Origin: Escherichia phage T5
Sequence record: AY587007.1
Strand: one strand, 5' to 3'
DNA length: 64,000 bases
Position numbers and translations under genes: made by a program. The notes beneath the pieces are model-generated. The model was not told the origin of the DNA, did no database searches, and saw nothing but the letters and a program-made list of their open reading frames with translations. This document shows, piece after piece, positions 124 to 41,500 of the stretch. Numbering within the stretch: position 1 is the first letter of the stretch; each line of letters opens with the position of its first letter.

Positions 124-858
124 TTACGCAACTTTTAATTTCTCAATATATTGTTGCGGGCTGCAACTATATTCTGCGCGTTCTTCTTCGGTCATACCTT
201 CCCAACATAATTGCAGGCGGTCGGCTAGGAACTGATAATCATTATCATCCTCAAGAGATTCATCAATAAAGGTTTCACCTATCAATGTCACGCCGATTGA
301 TAGAATATCATTAACGGCTTGTGCGTCCAGCGTTTTAAATCCGTATGACGCTGCCGCTGATAGCACGCCTTTATGATCATCAATCATTGTAAAATCAGCG
401 TTCGGATATAATTGTTTGAATAGCCCAAAATAGTAACTTTTATAAACTGCGTCTTTGCTGTGGTATATCTCGCTAACTTTATCAGCCTCAAAATATTTGT
501 GTAGTGTATCGCGGGAAAATACACGGATATTACTATCACCACGACCGCGCAACCCTTGTTTACGCAAATAATAATAGTCCGACTTGCTCATTAGTCGAGC
601 GGTGCAAATAATGTTTAAAGTATTTGCGTCATTCATGCACTGGCGCATATATGTAACAAGGGGCAATAGTGTATCTTGCATTATTAAATCATGTTTGCAG
701 GCTTCATTTTTATACTTATTTAAATCTAAATTGCCCTCGCTATCAAAGCAAGGCGCTACACGATGAAACGAATTAATGATAGTGCCGTCCAGATCCCAAA
801 TCATGACGCGGGAAATATGCGGGAAATTACGGGTAATATTCGTTTTAACTTGATTCAT
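124..858 (-). CDS. dmp: 5'-deoxyribonucleotidase (HAD-family phosphatase), T5 dmp-like
   Basis: 244-aa ORF with HAD motif I (WDLDGTIINS); length and position match the T5 pre-early dmp as I recall it. Confidence 0.65.
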   Translation of the reverse strand: MNQVKTNITRNFPHISRVMIWDLDGTIINSFHRVAPCFDSEGNLDLNKYKNEACKHDLIMQDTLLPLVTYMRQCMNDANTLNIICTARLMSKSDYYYLRKQGLRGRGDSNIRVFSRDTLHKYFEADKVSEIYHSKDAVYKSYYFGLFKQLYPNADFTMIDDHKGVLSAAASYGFKTLDAQAVNDILSIGVTLIGETFIDESLEDDNDYQFLADRLQLCWEGMTEEERAEYSCSPQQYIEKLKVA

Positions 859-29097: not shown

Positions 29098-29173
29098 TGG
29101 AGCGGCTAGAGGGAATCGAACCCTACTCAGCGAGGCTTGGAAGGCCTGCGACACAACCCGTGTGCTTAACCGC
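29098..29173 (-). tRNA. tRNA-Gly (anticodon TCC), unusual D-arm
   Basis: good acceptor and T-arm; anticodon loop CTTCCAA; D-arm folds only with a 5-nt loop. Confidence 0.4.
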
Positions 29174-29180
29174 GATTATT

Positions 29181-29258
29181 TGGCAGGGGATATTGGATTT
29201 GAACCAATGATCTCGACTTCAAAGGCCGAAGCTTTAGGCCAAGCTAAGCTAATCCCCA
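29181..29258 (-). tRNA. tRNA-Gln (anticodon TTG)
   Basis: full cloverleaf; discriminator G; position 1:72 is U-U. Confidence 0.65.
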
Positions 29259-29264
29259 ATTGTT

Positions 29265-29340
29265 TGGCAGAAGGTAGTGGGTTCGAACCACGATCAGTGG
29301 TTTCAGAGATCCCAGCCTTAACCGACTTGGCTAACCTTCT
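29265..29340 (-). tRNA. tRNA-like, possible degenerate tRNA-Gln (CTG)
   Basis: perfect acceptor stem and T-loop but two mismatches in anticodon stem; 5' 23 nt also encode the C-terminus of the HNH ORF 29318-29899. Confidence 0.3.
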
Positions 29341-29899
29341 TCTTAATACTTTTTGGATCTTTACCTGTTAAGGATTTATAACGTTTACGTAGTCCGTTAT
29401 CAGATAATCCTAACTCTTTTGATGCTTTAACCCATGAATAGTTTATTACCCAATATTCTATTTGCTCTGCTGTAATATCAGGGCTACTCTTAGGTTTACA
29501 ATCAAAACAAGTTTTAGATGAAGAATTTATTTGTTTATTACAGTAAGGGCATTTATTACCACCTATTGTATGTCCTCTTTCAACTGTAGTTTTTATTCTA
29601 TGATCTTGCTTGGTCATGACTACTAGATTATCTAAGGAAAAATTCAATTTATTCCTATCTTTGTGATCCACTTCTAGCTCAGATTCTAGTGAAGGTAAAT
29701 CTTTAAATACTCTAGCTAGTAATCTATGTAATACGATAGAGACATTCTTGCCCTGTTCATAGAATGTTACAAACGGATATCCTGCACTACCTAAATGATG
29801 TGTGAGTAATTTATTACTCTTGGTAGAGTAAACTTCTCCATATGGAGAGATTAAGTATTCGGGATATTCCGGAATTACTTTGAAATTTTCTAATTTCAT
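29318..29899 (-). CDS. HNH homing endonuclease (paralog family A)
   Basis: 193 aa; HRLLARVF ... EVDHKDRNKLNFSLDNL motif; C-terminal domain shared with 30943-31527 and 36304-36984. Confidence 0.6.
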   Translation of the reverse strand: MKLENFKVIPEYPEYLISPYGEVYSTKSNKLLTHHLGSAGYPFVTFYEQGKNVSIVLHRLLARVFKDLPSLESELEVDHKDRNKLNFSLDNLVVMTKQDHRIKTTVERGHTIGGNKCPYCNKQINSSSKTCFDCKPKSSPDITAEQIEYWVINYSWVKASKELGLSDNGLRKRYKSLTGKDPKSIKKKVSQVG

Positions 29900-29900
29900 C

Positions 29901-30101
29901 TTATTCTACAGGAACCGTGGCGATTGGCTCAGGTTCTTCAAGGCGCTTACCTTCATGATCTACTCGAATGACTCCGCATCCTTCGCAAACCACAACTGCA
30001 CCATAACCTTCTTTGACTTCGGCTTCTGTAATCAGACCAGATAAGTCACCAGTATCTCTGCCCCACATATCAATGGAGCATTGTTTGCAGAAATCAGCCA
30101 T
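29901..30101 (-). CDS. small zinc-ribbon-like protein
   Basis: 66 aa with CKQC ... CEGC. Confidence 0.4.
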   Translation of the reverse strand: MADFCKQCSIDMWGRDTGDLSGLITEAEVKEGYGAVVVCEGCGVIRVDHEGKRLEEPEPIATVPVE

Positions 30102-30126
30102 ATTTTATTTCCTATTTAAGTTAATT

Positions 30127-30203
30127 TGGGGTGGCTAGTGGAATTCGAATCCACATAGGCCTGATTCACAATCAGGATCATTAACCAATTATGATATAGC
30201 CAC
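30127..30203 (-). tRNA. tRNA-His (anticodon GTG)
   Basis: clean cloverleaf, discriminator C, CCA encoded. Confidence 0.75.
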
Positions 30204-30432
30204 AATTGAAAACTCGCAGGGTTAGCGAAACCATCCTCAATTAGCATGTTCTAGAATACTAATCAAGTTATCTCCTATTGCACGCAGCTCAAGACGAGTA
30301 CGAATTTTCAATTGTGGCGGCTCTCAGAAACTCTTCTATTCTAGCCCCAGAAGCTTACCCCCGAACGCATGTCGGGAAAGTCTTTCCAAGCGCATCAAAT
30401 AGCACCGTTACACTTTGAGCCATTGATATATC

Positions 30433-30517
30433 AAGGAACAGAAGGAGTTGAACCTTCACGAGATAGACCATTTATCTCAACCGCTTTTAAGGTATATTTC
30501 TAGGAGTGGATGTTCCT
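30433..30517 (-). other. tRNA-like element without encoded CCA, core not foldable as a cloverleaf
   Basis: perfect 7-bp acceptor pairing and perfect T-arm (GAAGG TTCAACT CCTTC) but no canonical anticodon or D arm. Confidence 0.3.
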
Positions 30518-30568
30518 AGTAAACCTATTCGGCAGTCCCGTCTACCAATTCCGGCATATTCCAAGAAT

Positions 30569-30745
30569 TTTTTATAAACCAGCAGAAGCCTCATTTAAAG
30601 CATCAACAATAGCTTCACGCTGGGTCATTCCATACCCAGTGGAGTCTAGGTGAGGCAAATAGGCTGCCCATCCATTATCTGTTTCATGAAGGCATGCTTT
30701 AAATTTTTTACCGTCCTTCATTGTTACAGTAACTGTTTTGCTCAT
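30569..30745 (-). CDS. small protein (58 aa) with HicB/UPF0150-like pattern
   Basis: ORF below track cut-off with RBS AAGGA; sequence GWAAYLPHLDSTGYGMTQREAIVDALNEA resembles the HicB antitoxin-fold family. Confidence 0.3.
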
Positions 30746-30765
30746 AAGGATTCCTTATAGTTAAT

Positions 30766-30855
30766 TGGAGGAAGGTAATGGAGTCGAACCATCACCGTAT
30801 CACTACAGCGGGCTAGTTTTCAAGACTAGTTGCGTACCACTACGCCCTACCTTCC
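30766..30855 (-). tRNA. tRNA-Ser (anticodon TGA), type II
   Basis: 90 nt, long variable arm, anticodon loop CTTGAAA. Confidence 0.6.
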
Positions 30856-30862
30856 ATTTGTT

Positions 30863-30956
30863 TGGCGGAAAAGATGGGAGTTGAACCCATAAGGCAATAT
30901 TGCTATTACTCAACCGATTTCCAATCGGGTTTAGTCGCCAGTCTATTTGCTTTTCC
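30863..30956 (-). tRNA. type-II-like tRNA, possibly Ser (GGA); fold uncertain
   Basis: 94 nt; perfect acceptor and T-arm; candidate anticodon loop TTGGAAA; D-arm ambiguous; 5' 14 nt overlap the HNH ORF 30943-31527. Confidence 0.3.
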
Positions 30957-31527
30957 GTTGTTCTGTTAATACTTTTGGGCTTAATCCAGTTAGTTTAGTA
31001 TACCTCCTGCGCAAAGTGGACTCTGATACTTCTAACTCTTTAGCTGCCTTAACCCACCCCATTAATAAAACCTTTTCAGTTATGTCGTCTAAAGACAATT
31101 CTGGTTTTATCAACCTTCCTGTAGGTTTTGGCTTACAATTTGTACATGTTACAGATCTCTGAAGCATTAGACTCCCACATAGGGGGCAAGGTACTCTACT
31201 GTCAGACCACCCATTATCTTTATTAGTTTTCCTCTGATGTTCTATTTTTGATAGGACTTGAAGATTATCTTTAGATAGATTCAGTCTATCTCTATCCTTA
31301 TGATCTACCTCTAATTCAGGGTCAAATAGATTATATAAGTCCCCAAATACATGAGAAATAATTCGGTGTATAAGTACAGAGGTTTGTTTACCATTTATCT
31401 GTAATTTTACAGCAGGGTATCCATCAACTATATATCTTGATAAAACTTTATTAGTAAATGTAGAGAACACATCCCCCGCCTCATTTACTAAATACCCTGG
31501 TGCATCTTTTATTGGTACAAACTGCAT
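30943..31527 (-). CDS. HNH homing endonuclease (paralog family A)
   Basis: 194 aa; HRIISHVF ... EVDHKDRDRLNLSKDNL motif. Confidence 0.6.
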   Translation of the reverse strand: MQFVPIKDAPGYLVNEAGDVFSTFTNKVLSRYIVDGYPAVKLQINGKQTSVLIHRIISHVFGDLYNLFDPELEVDHKDRDRLNLSKDNLQVLSKIEHQRKTNKDNGWSDSRVPCPLCGSLMLQRSVTCTNCKPKPTGRLIKPELSLDDITEKVLLMGWVKAAKELEVSESTLRRRYTKLTGLSPKVLTEQRKSK

Positions 31528-31544
31528 ACATAAATCCTATGAGT

Positions 31545-31629
31545 TGGTGGGGCTAGGGAGACTCGAACTCCCACGCATTTAAGCTACGGAATCTAAGGCC
31601 GTATTGTCTACCAGTTCCAGCATAGCCCC
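31545..31629 (-). tRNA. tRNA-Leu (anticodon TAG), type II
   Basis: 85 nt, variable arm present, anticodon loop CTTAGAT. Confidence 0.55.
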
Positions 31630-31634
31630 GAATT

Positions 31635-31709
31635 TGGTGGACAAAGAGGGACTCGAACCCTCCCTACCAGATTGCAAGTCTGGTGTGCTCCCGCTGACAC
31701 TATTCGCCC
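31635..31709 (-). tRNA. tRNA-Ala (anticodon TGC)
   Basis: clean cloverleaf, two G-U pairs in acceptor stem. Confidence 0.65.
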
Positions 31710-31947
31710 AAATTATTTAGTTTACTAAGGCTATTAGCTCGGCGTAACTACAGCACCTTCGCTTCAAGCGGAAGGAACCGCGTCATCTCGCAAACCCAAT
31801 ACACTATTCAGTTGCCGCTGAATCTAGTGGACTAATCTAGAACTTCTCCCAAATCGTAGGGATCGTGCTTTTTGGCAGCCAGTCCTAGGTCGAGCTAATA
31901 CCTTAGTGAACTATGATGGGGATTTCTCCTCATCAATTTATATAAAT

Positions 31948-31976
31948 ATTATAACAAGAAATTAAGCATTAAGCAA
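31948..31976 (-). promoter_or_regulatory. T5-type early promoter, -35 TTGCTT, 17 bp, -10 TATAAT
   Basis: hexamers on minus strand; would transcribe the downstream tRNA block. Confidence 0.55.
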
Positions 31977-32001
31977 CTGCGTTTTTGAAATTTCTTGGAC
32001 T

Positions 32002-32075
32002 TGGTACTCGGTGATAGAATCGAACTATCACAACCGCCGTGTAAAGGCGGGGTTCTCCCATTATACTAACCGAGC
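32002..32075 (-). tRNA. tRNA-Val (anticodon TAC)
   Basis: cloverleaf with perfect anticodon stem CCGCC/GGCGG. Confidence 0.6.
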
Positions 32076-32082
32076 AAAAATT

Positions 32083-32160
32083 TGGTGGGTTGCACAGGAC
32101 TCGAACCTGTAACCTATGGTTTAAAAGACCAGTGCTCTAAACCAGTTGAGCTAGCAACCC
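32083..32160 (-). tRNA. tRNA-Lys (anticodon TTT)
   Basis: clean cloverleaf, one mismatch closing the anticodon stem. Confidence 0.65.
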
Positions 32161-32328
32161 TTAGTAACCATTATATACTTCTTTAATAGTATGGACTTTC
32201 AAATAAAGGTGATTAGTACTAAACTCCGCCATTACTTCTTTTTCATTTTTTCCATAATGTGCAAGTAAGGATTTTGATGTATTCTTACCTAAACGTTTGT
32301 CACTTACTACTAATCGAAATACTTTCAT
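32161..32328 (-). CDS. small hypothetical protein (55 aa)
   Basis: ORF below track cut-off with RBS AGAGGA, wedged between two tRNA genes. Confidence 0.3.
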   Translation of the reverse strand: MKVFRLVVSDKRLGKNTSKSLLAHYGKNEKEVMAEFSTNHLYLKVHTIKEVYNGY

Positions 32329-32348
32329 TTCGAAATCCTCTATTAAAA

Positions 32349-32426
32349 TGGAAGCGGGTGCAGGAATCGAACCTACCTCTTTCTAGCTTATGAGACTAGC
32401 GATCTCTACCAGAGATCTAACCCGCA
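32349..32426 (-). tRNA. tRNA with anticodon CAT (Met, or Ile if lysidine-modified)
   Basis: cloverleaf with palindromic D-stem GATC; position 1:72 is U-U. Confidence 0.55.
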
Positions 32427-32432
32427 ATTGTT

Positions 32433-32509
32433 TGGTCTCCAATGAAGGACTCGAACCTTCAACCCCACCGCCCCAAACGGTGTACTCTAGCCAATTGAGC
32501 TAATCGGAG
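32433..32509 (-). tRNA. tRNA-Pro (anticodon TGG)
   Basis: clean cloverleaf. Confidence 0.7.
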
Positions 32510-32704
32510 AAAATTATTTCTTCAGCCACAACATGCTTAATCCTAGCATTGTAAAGCCTGTACTTAATCCTATTACCTTTTCTATCATAGAAAAGTTATC
32601 TATGTTAAATCCTACTATTACTATAGGGATAACCCAAGTACACATGAATACTGATGCAATTTTATACTTCACTTAGCTTTCCTTCTCTTCACTTTATAAG
32701 ATAT

Positions 32705-32733
32705 ATTATACAGAGAATTAAGCATAATAGCAA
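32705..32733 (-). promoter_or_regulatory. T5-type early promoter, -35 TTGCTA, 17 bp, -10 TATAAT
   Basis: hexamers on minus strand. Confidence 0.55.
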
Positions 32734-32863
32734 CTACATTTTTCATAAATTTACTTATTGTGTAGGCCACCTGGAGGCTACCAACCCCACGGCTGACAAA
32801 GAAGTTTGCGAGACTTCTCTTAAAAGCCAGAATAGACCCGCCGATCTATCGGAACCTACATAA

Positions 32864-33125
32864 TAAGTAAACTTTATAGTGTCATCCTAGACAGGATTCG
32901 AACCTGCTATCACTTGTGCGGACTTACGAGAACCATTCTTTCACTCGAATCGAACGAGCTTCTGCCCTCGCCAAGTTGGTTTCCCCATCAACCACGCTAG
33001 AATGTTAGATTGTTTTCAGTGCAAGAGTCCGAGTCTTGGACACGACCGCTTCGCAAGTACATAGGCAGCTTATCATGAGTCAGCACTTCCGAATTGCTAG
33101 CTCCGTGTTCTGCACTGAAATTTTA
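32864..33125 (-). other. non-coding stretch with two tRNA T-arm-like motifs but no foldable tRNA
   Basis: RNA-sense GCAGG TTCGAAT CCTGT and GCTCG TTCGATT CGAGT present; no matching acceptor or anticodon arms found. Confidence 0.3.
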
Positions 33126-33473
33126 TTAGTTTAACCGTAAAGTATTATCTACTTCACCATTAATTGTTCGGCACTCCTCTGGGATTGCCGGAGTGGCCTT
33201 GTATTCCCACCACTCAGCACCATCATATTCCCCACGTTCTAGCCAAGTTCCGTCGGCAAACCATACATTACCATAAAGTAATTGTCCACCGTATCCAGAA
33301 TCATATTCAAAGTCTAGGTTATCAAGAAAATCCTCAATATCTTCTTCTGTATAACCTAAAGGTAATACCCAAACTTTTTTATCCCCATAATACCCGAATT
33401 CTATTTTAATACACTTAACTTCAGAATTAGTATTTTTTAAGGCAAGTAACAGCTCTTCTTTGGCATTACGCAT
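33126..33473 (-). CDS. hypothetical acidic protein
   Basis: start trimmed to ATG 33473 so the CDS does not run through tRNA-Asp; 115 aa. Confidence 0.45.
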   Translation of the reverse strand: MRNAKEELLLALKNTNSEVKCIKIEFGYYGDKKVWVLPLGYTEEDIEDFLDNLDFEYDSGYGGQLLYGNVWFADGTWLERGEYDGAEWWEYKATPAIPEECRTINGEVDNTLRLN

Positions 33474-33498
33474 AGTATATTCCCATACTGAATTAATT

Positions 33499-33575
33499 TG
33501 GCGCGACCGATGGGATTTGAACCCACATTCTCTCCCGTGACAGGGGAGTACCATTACCAAGCCAGCCCCGGTCGC
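33499..33575 (-). tRNA. tRNA-Asp (anticodon GTC)
   Basis: cloverleaf with anticodon stem CTCCC/GGGAG. Confidence 0.65.
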
Positions 33576-33584
33576 ATAATTTAT

Positions 33585-33770
33585 TTACTCAGCTTTGAGT
33601 TTTTCAATAGCTGCATTAAGTTCTTTAAGAAACTCTTTTCGTACATTAAGACGATTGAGACTTACTAGTATATCATGTTTAAGCTCTTCGATGTATTTCT
33701 TCTCAACTTCAATATTGTTGATAGTGCTATCACGATGAACTTCTAGCTGCGCAATCACATTCTTGGACAT
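33585..33770 (-). CDS. small coiled-coil protein
   Basis: 61-aa ORF. Confidence 0.35.
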   Translation of the reverse strand: MSKNVIAQLEVHRDSTINNIEVEKKYIEELKHDILVSLNRLNVRKEFLKELNAAIEKLKAE

Positions 33771-33872
33771 GCTTGTTTCCTCAGTTATTAATGAAAATGG
33801 TATCTGTGGCTGAATTCGATGTCAGCAATGATAGCTGGTTGGCTACCGGTTTACTTAACTCTACACAGAATT

Positions 33873-33950
33873 TGGCGGTTCCTGCTGGATTCGAACCAGC
33901 AACCCTCAACTTAACAAGATGCCGCTCTAACCAATTAGAGCTAAGGAACC
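33873..33950 (-). tRNA. tRNA-Asn (anticodon GTT)
   Basis: perfect acceptor, D- and T-arms; anticodon stem has two non-canonical pairs. Confidence 0.5.
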
Positions 33951-34445
33951 ATATAAGTCAGAACTAGAGTTAATACGTTCTAGATATTTACTAAGATCTC
34001 TAGAATTTATACTAAACCACTCATGTTCTTTTAAATCTTTGAAATACTGGTGAATTAGTTTTTCACCTTTTCGTTTGTCAAACCAAAAAGACCAATGCTC
34101 TAACTTATAATCCCTATAAGGGGAATAAGTCTGATATTGAGCTAATCTCTCCTTTGGATTTTGACTCATACCTATTTTATACTGATTTTTCCATGCAGGA
34201 TTACTAATACAGTATACAAAACCTTCAGAAATAGGAAGTTTATTTTCCTGCTTAAACTTTATAAAGGAAAGTGCAGCAAGTTTTCTCGAATACATAGTAT
34301 TTGTATTCTTTTTGGTATTACCATTGGTTCCTGAAAGATTTATATATTCTTCCATAAATCTTTGGATTAGTTCTGCGGTTATATAGAAGGGCTCATTAGT
34401 AACAACGCCTTTCTTTACCAAACTATCAAAAACTTTTGTATGCAC
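33927..34445 (-). CDS. GIY-YIG-like homing endonuclease
   Basis: 172 aa with GFVYCISNP ... YKIGMS ... R motif; last 8 codons lie inside tRNA-Asn. Confidence 0.45.
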   Translation of the reverse strand: MHTKVFDSLVKKGVVTNEPFYITAELIQRFMEEYINLSGTNGNTKKNTNTMYSRKLAALSFIKFKQENKLPISEGFVYCISNPAWKNQYKIGMSQNPKERLAQYQTYSPYRDYKLEHWSFWFDKRKGEKLIHQYFKDLKEHEWFSINSRDLSKYLERINSSSDLYGSLALIG

Positions 34446-34466: not shown

Positions 34467-34542
34467 TGGACGACCGCATGAGATTTGAACTCACATAAAA
34501 AGGATTTGCAATCCTTCGCCTAAGCCATTCAGCCAACGGTCG
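34467..34542 (-). tRNA. tRNA-Cys (anticodon GCA)
   Basis: cloverleaf with perfect anticodon stem AAGGA/TCCTT. Confidence 0.6.
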
Positions 34543-34676: not shown

Positions 34677-34705
34677 ATTGCTTCTCCAGTTCAATTTATG
34701 TAATT

Positions 34706-34734
34706 ATTATATAGAACTTTTGGAAACTAAGCAA
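34706..34734 (-). promoter_or_regulatory. T5-type early promoter, -35 TTGCTT, 17 bp, -10 TATAAT
   Basis: hexamers on minus strand. Confidence 0.5.
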
Positions 34735-34999
34735 CTACATTTTTTAAGAATTTGATGCCTTTCTTTTTCTTCTTATATTTCCACGTTAATGGATTCTGTC
34801 GATTATAAACGCTTGAGATCTTTGTCTCGTCAAAGTTCTTCAATATCATGTAATCACAGGATAATTGTTCTAGTGGAATGTGGTCACCGCCAAAAGCGTA
34901 TATATAAGGCCGTTGACTAACACGATAATGATAGACTTTGTTAATTCTACGTTTCAGCGATTTATCCGCACAGTAAATAAAGAAGTTTTCAGGATGCAT
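34727..34999 (-). CDS. hypothetical protein
   Basis: start moved to ATG 34999 with RBS AAGGAG; 90 aa. Confidence 0.4.
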   Translation of the reverse strand: MHPENFFIYCADKSLKRRINKVYHYRVSQRPYIYAFGGDHIPLEQLSCDYMILKNFDETKISSVYNRQNPLTWKYKKKKKGIKFLKNVVA

Positions 35000-35097: not shown

Positions 35098-35168
35098 TGG
35101 CAGAGGTAAAGGTATTCGAAACCTTTTCATGGGTTTTGGAGGCCCATTTGCAACCTATGCGTACCCCA
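35098..35168 (-). tRNA. tRNA-Trp (anticodon CCA), truncated D-arm
   Basis: 71 nt; anticodon loop CTCCAAA; perfect T-arm; D-arm folds as 3-bp stem with 5-nt loop; 1:72 is U-U. Confidence 0.4.
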
Positions 35169-36303: not shown

Positions 36304-36984
36304 CTATGTTTTCTTAATACTTTTAGGATCTTTCCCCGTCAGGGACTTATACCTTTTCCTTAATCCAGTATCAGACAATCCTAGTTCTTTAGAGGCACGA
36401 ATCCAGGAATATTTAGATACCCAGTACTCTATTTGCTCCACAGTAATATCTGGATTTATAGTTATCCCTTTAGGAGTACATGATTTACAGTGTGTTGCTC
36501 TTGAGCTAATTTCGCAGTGACAAATAGCACACGTATTTACAGTCCTTTCTGTATACCTGCCAATATTTTTGCCTGCATGAGTAGGCGTTAGTGCATGGCA
36601 ATTTGGACATAGGAGGGCTAAGTTATCCCATTCATTATTATAGTGGTTTCCATCCTTGTGTTCGAGTTCTAAAGGAATTGGTTTGTCTAACCAACTTTCT
36701 AAGCCGCAACTCTCACACTTATGTGGTTTTAGCCCCTCGTTAAGAATTTTATTCTTTAGTTTATAGGAAGAAATAGGGCTGCCGTTATATAAATATTCTG
36801 TTGCAGACTTATATTTATTATCATACTGCCTATTCGTAGGAATAACTACTATTCCTAGTTTTCCTAAATATGCTTCCAAAGTGTTCGAGGAGCAGGATAG
36901 CATTCTTGCTATCTCTGCCTTAGATTTTCCCTGAGCTATCCACTGAGCTATTTCTTCCTTTCTATCTAGTATATCAGTTCTCAT
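36304..36984 (-). CDS. HNH homing endonuclease with N-terminal HTH-like region
   Basis: 226 aa; LELEHKDGNHYNNEWDNLALLCPNCH motif; C-terminus shared with paralogs. Confidence 0.6.
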   Translation of the reverse strand: MRTDILDRKEEIAQWIAQGKSKAEIARMLSCSSNTLEAYLGKLGIVVIPTNRQYDNKYKSATEYLYNGSPISSYKLKNKILNEGLKPHKCESCGLESWLDKPIPLELEHKDGNHYNNEWDNLALLCPNCHALTPTHAGKNIGRYTERTVNTCAICHCEISSRATHCKSCTPKGITINPDITVEQIEYWVSKYSWIRASKELGLSDTGLRKRYKSLTGKDPKSIKKT

Positions 36985-36997
36985 AATTTATGACTTT

Positions 36998-37075
36998 CTA
37001 CTTAAGTTGGTGGCTCCCCGAGGATTCGAACCTACGTACCTTCCAGTTATGAGCTGGGTGCTCATACCATATGAG
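36998..37075 (-). tRNA. tRNA with anticodon CAT (Met/fMet/Ile2 not resolved)
   Basis: good acceptor, D- and anticodon arms; T-stem only 3 bp. Confidence 0.5.
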
Positions 37076-37081
37076 CTTGAG

Positions 37082-37170
37082 AACCAGAATTTGGCGGAAG
37101 AAGTGGGAATCGAACCCACAAGGCTATATTTCAAACCGACAGATTAGCAATCTGCTGCAATACCGTTATG
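37082..37170 (-). tRNA. tRNA-Ser (anticodon GCT), type II
   Basis: 89 nt; anticodon loop TTGCTAA; long variable arm; perfect T-arm. Confidence 0.6.
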
Positions 37171-40996: not shown

Positions 40997-41352
40997 TGGT
41001 TATACACTGCATATACGAGTGCTCGGTTAGGTTAGGGTCATGACTCCCTACCTTTTGCTGCCCTCAACAGGAGTTATCGCGCGTTTACCTGTATGTTGTG
41101 CACCATTAGTCACGACTTTCACGTGATCCTTTCCCACTTTGTTGGTAGCTTGAAAAACTACTCCGATATGGAGGAAAAACTTCACTACCTAGAATACCTT
41201 CTAAAGTTCTTCTTTAGCCTGGACATAGTTAAATCGTAATAAAACTATTCAGCAGACTGGTTGGTTAGTCTGGAACCAACTACCGCGTGGTTTAGGCAGT
41301 GCGCAACTAACCTCGGAAGCTTTTACGTTAAAAGCACCAGTTATCCAGTTCT

Positions 41353-41424
41353 TACCGACCGTAGGATTCGAACCTACATCTTCCACCAGTTACGGCTTGA
41401 TAATACCGTTTATACTAGGTCGGC
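41353..41424 (-). other. tRNA-like element without CCA, no canonical anticodon arm
   Basis: good acceptor pairing and perfect T-arm (GTAGG TTCGAAT CCTAC); middle does not fold as D plus anticodon arms. Confidence 0.3.
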
Positions 41425-41500
41425 AGTGTTACTACATAAGTGATTTCCACACCCCACTATCAATAAATTAGAGAAGAATTACTCTCTAATTTATGAATAT

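Follow-up and report, generated by a model that had tools for sequence, protein, structure and literature searches.

In phage T4, the GIY-YIG homing endonuclease SegB is encoded inside a cluster of transfer RNA (tRNA) genes by a free-standing gene that is absent from close relatives and is inherited along with the flanking tRNA genes (Brok-Volchanskaya et al. 2008, PMC2330249). Its target has been mapped to the T-loop motif of tRNA genes, and the stop codon of segB is separated from the last sense codon by the site at which the 5′ end of the tRNA-Arg downstream is processed (PMC2330249). SegF, SegG, and SegE, known from intronless homing and marker exclusion among the T-even phages, likewise combine presence or absence among relatives with co-conversion of the flanks and divergent, presumably resistant alleles (PMC2330249). 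The Discussion of the SegB paper proposes that tRNA processing limits nuclease expression in the case of both T4 segB and the F-Tfl enzymes of phage T5, citing for the latter Akulenko 2004 and a personal communication from Ksenzenko. Two of these T5 enzymes, F-TflI (encoded by hegC) and F-TflII (hegD), are described as "site-specific nicking" in papers that cite Akulenko et al. 2004 (Mol Biol (Mosk) 38:632). Here, we analyzed the tRNA gene cluster of Escherichia phage T5 within a stretch of 64,000 nucleotides (nt) from record AY587007.1 (hereafter, the window), in which three open reading frames (ORFs)—hegD, hegC, and T5.069—each run into the 5′ end of the tRNA gene that follows. We consider it probable that all three are free-standing homing-type nuclease genes placed flush against tRNA 5′ ends, the expression of which would be limited by processing of the downstream tRNA.

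A 6.5-kb query across the three junctions was 100% identical to Escherichia phage T5 (AY543070/NC_005859), in which AY543070 positions equal window positions plus 79. The locus is the T5 tRNA gene cluster and lies entirely on the minus strand, as do all T5 features located below. AY543070 already shows all three ORF–tRNA overlaps together with a pseudogene flag for tRNA-Gln(CUG); it names hegD (T5.061) "H-N-H endonuclease F-TflII" and hegC (T5.064) "TflI", and lists T5.069 as hypothetical. Relative to the F-TflI/F-TflII/F-TflIV set of that record (same genes, 100% sequence identity, same overlaps) there is no difference for hegC and hegD. The arrangement is known biology of a model phage, with genes, overlaps, and pseudogene status present in the 2004–2005 annotation, and the comparative details across relatives that we describe are tidy but incremental. 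The MUG113/T5orf172 (GIY-YIG-like) domain of T5.069 and the patchy distribution of this gene are additions of the present analysis.

Stop positions were taken from the ORF list and the raw sequence, and the tRNA 5′ ends were concordant across ARAGORN, Rfam, and the curated GenBank T5 record. hegD (29318..29899) encodes a protein of 193 amino acids (aa) with Pfam matches to HNH_3 (1e-9, above the Pfam cut-off) and NUMOD4 (3e-6), and the invariant H, N, and H columns are visible in a paralog alignment. Its TAA stop occupies nt 21–23 of tRNA-Gln(CUG) (tRNAQ2; 29265..29340), an overlap of 23 nt. hegC (30943..31527; 194 aa; HNH_3 at 4.7e-6, above the cut-off) stops with TAG at nt 12–14 of the 94-nt tRNA-Ser(GGA) (tRNAS2; 30863..30956), an overlap of 14 nt; its final six codons and stop are encoded by a 6-nt spacer plus nt 1–14 of the tRNA. 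T5.069 (33927..34445; 172 aa), a putative nuclease, matches MUG113 (5.5e-16) and T5orf172 (2.5e-12), bears the motif GFVY-(10 aa)-YKIG followed by KERL, and ends with TAG at nt 22–24 of tRNA-Asn(GUU) (33873..33950), so that the two genes share nt 1–24 of the tRNA. While hypothetical in T5, it is annotated as a putative homing endonuclease or GIY-YIG nuclease in relatives. The stops of hegD and T5.069 coincide with the 3′ end of the D-loop, and that of hegC also lies in the D-arm region. These assignments bear out a sequence-only reading of the window, which had recognized two HNH ORFs and one GIY-YIG ORF that terminate 14–24 nt inside a downstream tRNA.

None of the three ORFs has a stop codon of its own; each continues to the first in-frame stop supplied by the tRNA. 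In the paralog alignment, the conserved family C-terminus of hegD (...KDPKSIKK) extends up to where the tRNA begins, and the remaining KVSQVG and the stop behind it are tRNA-encoded. An internal control is provided by hegA (F-TflIV; 36304..36984), which was identified as a hegD paralog from the ORF list, AY543070, Pfam, and the same alignment, because what lies behind it is an ORF and not a tRNA, and its own stop comes directly after the shared KDPKSIKK motif.

The layout described for segB and tRNA-Arg was found at all three T5 junctions: the nuclease ORF and its tRNA share a strand and a transcription unit, and the stop codon lies 3′ of tRNA nt +1. In the AY543070 annotation, promoter P13b (31922..31996) heads a unit with hegC, both tRNA-Ser genes, hegD, and both tRNA-Gln genes, and promoter P14b (34680..34754) heads one with tRNA-Cys, T5.069, and tRNA-Asn, each ORF–tRNA pair thus being downstream of an annotated promoter. 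A sequence scan revealed no terminator-like site between any nuclease ORF and its tRNA, and a scan for dedicated promoters before the nuclease ORFs was uninformative, with 16 matches against 16.6 expected from shuffling. The upstream ends are close to their neighbors as well: hegD starts 1 nt after the stop of the small ORF T5.062 (29901..30101; ORF list and AY543070), hegC 17 nt after the CCA of tRNA-Leu(UAG) (31545..31629), and T5.069 21 nt after the CCA of tRNA-Cys (34467..34542), both of these tRNAs being called by ARAGORN. Compared with T4 segB, the T5 overlaps are deeper (14–24 nt), such that four to seven codons plus the stop would be lost, and two of the three T5 enzymes are HNH nickases, whereas SegB is a GIY-YIG double-strand cutter. 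In contrast to SegF, SegG, and SegE, the flanking markers in T5 are tRNA genes, the nuclease ORF shares nucleotides with the linked allele, and homing is inferred from sequence.

This layout allows a mechanism to be proposed. Cleavage by ribonuclease P (RNase P) at the tRNA 5′ end would sever the nuclease messenger RNA 11–21 nt before its stop codon, removing the last four to seven codons together with the stop and leaving a non-stop message. Such a message would be degraded, and the stalled product would probably be tagged by transfer-messenger RNA. Ribosomes that reach the stop inside the tRNA would, for their part, keep the acceptor and D arms unfolded. One transcript could then give rise to either a mature tRNA or a full-length nuclease, and a potentially toxic nuclease would be kept low. 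The resident tRNA alleles of nuclease-less phages would be the probable cleavage targets, and the linked alleles would be resistant; strong divergence of the tRNA-Gln, tRNA-Leu, and tRNA-Ser alleles between carrier and non-carrier haplotypes supports this indirectly. The RNase P step and its effect on nuclease expression have previously been proposed in the literature and are likely to apply here.

Evidence that nuclease ORFs end within tRNAs as a rule comes from T5 itself and from its relatives. Overlaps of at least 14 nt were present in all three T5 nuclease ORFs directly upstream of a tRNA versus none of 11 other ORFs in the equivalent position, which retain their own stops (Fisher p = 0.003, with classes defined post hoc and a small n). 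At least six further junction types were found elsewhere: a MUG113 ORF that enters tRNA-Lys by 10 nt in BF23 and VEc33; a 128-aa ORF, annotated as HNH and with a sub-threshold Pfam HNH_2 match, that enters tRNA-Ala by 10 nt in SA001 and NR01; and hegD homologs at IMG/VR loci that enter tRNA-Gly by 8 nt (L028), tRNA-Asp by 10 nt (L031), tRNA-Pro by 30 nt (L029), and tRNA-Gln by 49 nt (L027). Pfam support for the HNH ORFs at these other tRNAs varies in strength; the remaining nuclease ORFs there are of the MUG113/T5orf172 type. All told, at least nine nuclease-to-tRNA junctions (Gln twice, Ser, Asn, Lys, Ala, Gly, Asp, and Pro) show overlaps of 8–49 nt. The IMG/VR scan retrieved 8 loci with the hegD protein alone and 26 with a profile, most of the latter distant and not tRNA-linked. 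One further candidate, a frame at L042 that reads through an entire tRNA-Phe, was discarded as an over-extended open frame.

We then compared the cluster across nine loci that span it (T5, BF23, DaisyDussoix, VEc33, SA001, JLBYU40, T5_ev219, S130, and chee24), with more than 1,100 records matching the T5 tRNA region as the background for presence counts. Diverged alleles were compared by anchored extractions and blastn maps, as global T5/BF23 alignments are misleading there. In the blastn maps, homology is lost either within the flanking tRNA genes or at their edges. Judged by their presence in some and absence from other close relatives, the three nuclease genes are mobile: hegD occurs in 18, hegC in 26, and T5.069 in about 80 of the >1,100 records, and an empty hegC site exists in NR01. 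Insertion of endonuclease genes beside tRNA genes, which the sequence-only reading had proposed, is upheld by this comparison.

hegD was found in three of the nine loci (T5, DaisyDussoix, and SA001) as well as in fp01 and SP3 from IMG/VR, always with the 23-nt overlap; BF23, VEc33, JLBYU40, T5_ev219, S130, and chee24 lack it, and hegD-containing alleles amount to 18 records of the phage collection. In the six loci without hegD, a T5.062 homolog ends 8–13 nt before tRNA-Gln(CUG). Both tRNA-Gln(CUG) and the neighboring tRNA-Gln(UUG) are strongly diverged between carriers and non-carriers. The latter (tRNAQ1; 29181..29258; ARAGORN and AY543070, Rfam 54.5 bits), an effective suppressor according to its GenBank note, is of the T5 allele type in the sampled hegD carriers. 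Two phages appear to have lost the gene. In WP85, the T5.062 homolog is in frame with the last 13 hegD codons across a hegD deletion (...RLE joined to DPKSTKKKVSQVG, then the stop), and the fusion ORF still stops 23 nt inside an intact tRNA-Gln(CUG). Since DPKSIKK is a conserved C-terminal motif of the hegA/hegD family, this fusion is read as a relic rather than an ancestor. In DT571/2, T5.062 is likewise fused across a hegD deletion, here running from AGAACCTGAGCCAA within T5.062 to AGAAGGTTAGCCAA, where tRNA-Gln(CUG) begins; nt 5–8 of the tRNA are replaced, which leaves its acceptor stem with the mismatches C5.C68 and C6.C67. As a side observation on the paralog hegA, its N-terminus carries a LuxR/GerE-type helix-turn-helix where hegD has NUMOD4, and the C-terminal ~146 nt of the two genes are 75–78% identical at the DNA level, a pattern that suggests domain shuffling between nuclease genes within one genome.

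Among the sampled phages, hegC is carried only by T5 and DaisyDussoix, with the 14-nt overlap in both, and it is present in 26 records of the phage collection. The empty site of NR01 consists of a type-II tRNA-Leu, a 6-nt AACAAC spacer, and a T5-type tRNA-Ser(GGA) whose D arm bears the same TAG as in T5. From this site we infer that hegC takes its final six codons and its stop from spacer and tRNA sequence that predates it, and that the insert itself would bring no stop. Upstream of hegC, an 85-nt type-II allele of tRNA-Leu(UAG) is shared by T5, DaisyDussoix, and NR01, whereas the other sampled hegC-less relatives have a very different 77-nt allele. In DaisyDussoix, tRNA-Ser(GGA) is a chimera, T5-like up to the anticodon and BF23-like beyond. 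The 5–68 pair is A5:U68 in T5 and G5:C68 in BF23, and the chimera has an A5.C68 mismatch. This fits the pattern expected from a co-conversion tract that ends inside the gene.

Two further observations concern the interval that hegC occupies in T5. The 77-nt tRNA-Leu(UAG) (BF23 locus L002, 3881–3957) lacks the long variable arm that a leucine tRNA would normally have, and a BF23 GenBank note describes it as an effective suppressor. The spacer between tRNA-Leu(UAG) and tRNA-Ser(GGA) in hegC-less phages is 112 nt long (L002, 3769–3880, minus strand; also in VEc33, JLBYU40, and T5_ev219) and contains the T-arm-like motif TGGGTTCGAATCCCA, which suggests a decayed tRNA remnant at the place where T5 has hegC.

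T5.069 was present in all nine cluster-wide loci, a sample that is biased towards T5; all nine have an identical tRNA-Asn and the 24-nt overlap. In the whole phage collection, only 79 records hold orthologs with at least 90% identity, and the gene is present in 81 of the 495 records that match the interval from tRNA-Cys through the ORF to tRNA-Asn. This patchy distribution suggests that T5.069 is mobile. In the ORF-less phages NBSal003, Eps7, and HdH2, a nearly identical tRNA-Cys is followed by a different, 83-nt allele of tRNA-Asn, and homology between ORF-containing and ORF-less phages resumes right past the CCA. Because tRNA-Cys is nearly identical with or without the ORF, the upstream boundary of the T5.069 cassette can be placed just past the tRNA-Cys CCA. 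The 83-nt tRNA-Asn (L018, L019, and L020, corresponding to NBSal003, HdH2, and Eps7; ~494–576, minus strand) has an enlarged variable region, unusual for a tRNA-Asn, and in HdH2 a further ~150 nt of unrelated sequence separates tRNA-Cys from tRNA-Asn.

Across these loci, hegD and T5.069 usually travel with diverged alleles of the adjacent tRNA. As read from the aligned genomes, the relatives capture several stages in the life of a homing gene, with sites both unoccupied and occupied, derivatives that arose by deletion, and a recombination tract that ends in a chimeric tRNA.

Several points weigh against homing-type genes with processing-limited expression. For T5.069, we found no experimental report of nuclease activity or homing in the literature. 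The association between nuclease gene and tRNA allele is imperfect, and perfect linkage was rejected: T5-type tRNA-Gln(CUG) occurs without hegD in the deletion derivatives WP85 and DT571/2 and in Gostya9, T5-type tRNA-Ser and tRNA-Leu occur without hegC in NR01, and a T5-type tRNA-Gln(UUG), 100% identical, also adjoins a different tRNA-Gln(CUG) in many records. The 5′ parts of tRNAs are only mildly enriched in stops, with a stop within 24 nt in 56% of tRNA × frame combinations versus 44% of random positions; TAG is found at nt 8–10 (U8-A9-G10) in 13 of 25 T5 tRNAs, and stops recur near the 3′ end of the D-loop as well. Given so weak an enrichment, we rejected the idea that overlap length is special. 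The cluster is also tightly packed, with spacers of 5–10 nt between tRNAs and 0–21 nt between ORFs and tRNAs, and two small non-nuclease ORFs overlap tRNAs, one entering tRNA-Met by 6 nt and the other, in BF23, tRNA-Cys by 14 nt. The latter, trn 2.7* (L002, AJ604530, 7351–7542; 63–66 aa; weak DUF7695 match), also occurs in T5_ev219 and chee24, and it shows that running from an ORF into a tRNA 5′ end is not restricted to nuclease genes.

The last of these points feed the strongest alternative, neutral compaction, which we regard as possible, if somewhat less than an even prospect. On this account, cassettes landed at tRNA genes, or were trimmed to them by deletion; having lost their stop or never possessed one, they simply end at the next in-frame stop, the overlap being harmless and non-regulatory. 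A tightly packed cluster, with ORF–tRNA gaps of −1 to −21 nt and with non-nuclease overlaps, could produce such a by-product, a stop within 24 nt is expected in about half of the frames, and the tRNA-encoded tails (KVSQVG, CG, and LKVL) are not conserved among paralogs. It fits less well, however, with nuclease ORFs before tRNAs that always overlap, both in T5 and at the further junction types of its relatives, while the 11 other T5 ORFs in this position keep their own stops, or with the independent, analogous arrangement of segB and tRNA-Arg in T4 (PMC2330249).

A more ambitious version of the favored explanation holds that nuclease cassettes in the tRNA clusters of Demerecviridae have been selected, as a general design, to end inside the tRNA. 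Nuclease and cleavage-resistant overlapped tRNA allele would move as a unit that replaces the resident isoacceptor, and RNase P maturation would throttle the nuclease in inverse coupling to tRNA production. The junction types counted above, at least nine in number, are compatible with selection for such a design without proving it, and we put it forward tentatively, as rather doubtful.

The sequence-only reading had further suggested that the insertions possibly damaged the tRNAs, and that the two HNH cases involve those with the poorest folds. In covariance-model scoring against Rfam, where the tRNA gathering threshold is 29 bits, tRNA-Gln(CUG) reached 39.1 and tRNA-Asn 55.4 bits, both above threshold, and tRNA-Ser(GGA) 39.0 bits, under the tRNA-Sec model only, whose cut-off is 47. 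ARAGORN called all three. The two HNH-linked tRNAs thus do score low, at about 39 bits, but they are not the poorest of the T5 cluster: tRNA-Leu (39.7), Ile2 (38.2), Tyr (28.6), and Gly1 (26.7 bits) are as low or lower and tRNA-Trp has no Rfam match. No nuclease ORF runs into the 5′ end of any of these, even though hegC directly follows tRNA-Leu and hegA directly follows Ile2. Nor do low model scores in this cluster predict non-function, since Gly1, whose 26.7 bits come from the tRNA-Sec model, is an effective suppressor after anticodon replacement according to its GenBank note. ARAGORN, for its part, misses the annotated Gly-UCC (29098–29173), Trp-CCA (35098–35168), and Ile2-CAU (37007–37084).

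That nuclease ORFs invaded tRNA 5′ ends and thereby damaged tRNA-Gln(CUG) and tRNA-Ser(GGA) is, in our estimate, very unlikely, and sequence comparisons have already largely refuted it. In its favor, beyond the low scores, tRNA-Gln(CUG) is flagged as a pseudogene in T5, tRNA-Ser(GGA) fails the suppressor test, and the hegC stop sits in a weak D arm. Against it, all three acceptor stems are perfect (7/7), and the quality of the tRNAs proved independent of overlap when relatives were compared. In T5 tRNA-Gln(CUG), the anticodon stem is interrupted by two mismatches, G.A and A.C, and the T stem is only 4 base pairs long; all of these defects lie 3′ of the hegD stop. T5-type alleles of this tRNA occur in six other phages, all with a proper GGGGU anticodon stem; G30A and two small indels are confined to T5. 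In five of them (DaisyDussoix, SA001, fp01, SP3, and WP85) the first 30 nt, and hence the 23-nt overlap sequence, are identical to T5 and the cloverleaf is intact, the sixth being DT571/2 with its replaced nt 5–8. With hegD and its overlap present, tRNA-Gln(CUG) scores 54.9 bits in DaisyDussoix and 56.1 bits in SA001; without either, it scores 58.5 bits in both BF23 and VEc33. GenBank notes describe it as an effective suppressor in BF23 and a pseudogene in T5. From these alleles, T5 tRNA-Gln(CUG) is best described as an independently decayed copy in a region dispensable in the laboratory; its decay is consistent with the T5123 deletion (29191–32442), which shows that the tRNA region can be dispensed with under laboratory conditions (PMC11464382).

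For tRNA-Ser(GGA), damage by hegC is contradicted by the same kind of comparison. The T5 gene has a weak D stem and one anticodon-stem mismatch, yet the alleles of hegC-less BF23 and VEc33 are weaker still, giving no Rfam match at E < 0.5 and no ARAGORN call, and GenBank notes record that neither the T5 nor the BF23 gene could be made into a suppressor. Its weakness is therefore older than hegC or independent of it, and the TAG in its D arm is found in NR01 without hegC. tRNA-Asn, with the longest overlap of the three, has the highest score, a good T arm, and G.A and U.U in the anticodon stem; according to a GenBank note, attempts to make it a suppressor in T5 did not succeed. Since relatives hold intact tRNAs that share the overlap sequence, the overlap itself does not, on this comparative evidence, impair the tRNA. 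Where real damage is seen in the alignments, it is tied to turnover of the nuclease genes, through recombination or deletion, and is found in relatives rather than in T5.

An annotation artefact, with tRNA 5′ ends or ORF ends mis-called and the overlap unreal, can practically be dismissed: ARAGORN and Rfam do differ by ~3 nt at tRNA 3′ ends, due to the CCA, but their 5′ ends agree with each other and with the curated GenBank record, the acceptor stems pair fully from those ends, and no earlier in-frame stop exists in the nuclease ORFs.

Other features of the cluster and its surroundings deserve brief mention. "Stable RNAs with unknown functions" and "tRNA-like" RNAs are annotated among the T5 tRNAs, namely RNAIII, RNAI, RNA1, RNAIV, and RNA2 (window 30205–30565 and 32759–33004) and RNA3 (window 33798–33870); Rfam returned only weak tRNA-clan matches for them and no other family. 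ARAGORN also called a "tRNA-Ser(act)" at window 41352–41425 (Rfam tRNA 38.3 bits), which falls within the 719-nt "RNAX, stable RNA with unknown functions" of AY543070, where no tRNA is annotated. In VEc33 (L012, MN316588; 6898–6974, minus strand), a tRNA with a CUA anticodon, labeled "tRNA-Pyl(cta)" by ARAGORN, occupies the position of tRNA-Trp(CCA) and differs from the JLBYU40 tRNA-Trp by one base. It could be a natural phage amber-suppressor tRNA or a sequencing or propagation variant.

For annotation, these results carry a warning: an overlap alone is no reason to shorten such ORFs or to annotate the tRNAs as pseudogenes. The relatives of T5 illustrate, in compact form, the life cycle of homing genes on tRNA genes, including two independent deletion derivatives, one of which clips a tRNA. 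As judged from these genomes, it is the turnover of selfish nuclease genes, and not the overlap, that erodes phage tRNA sets. Since the assortment of tRNA alleles in a phage is reshuffled by nuclease cassettes, this is of relevance to the current interest in phage tRNAs as a counter-defence against tRNA-cleaving immune systems such as PARIS and retrons.

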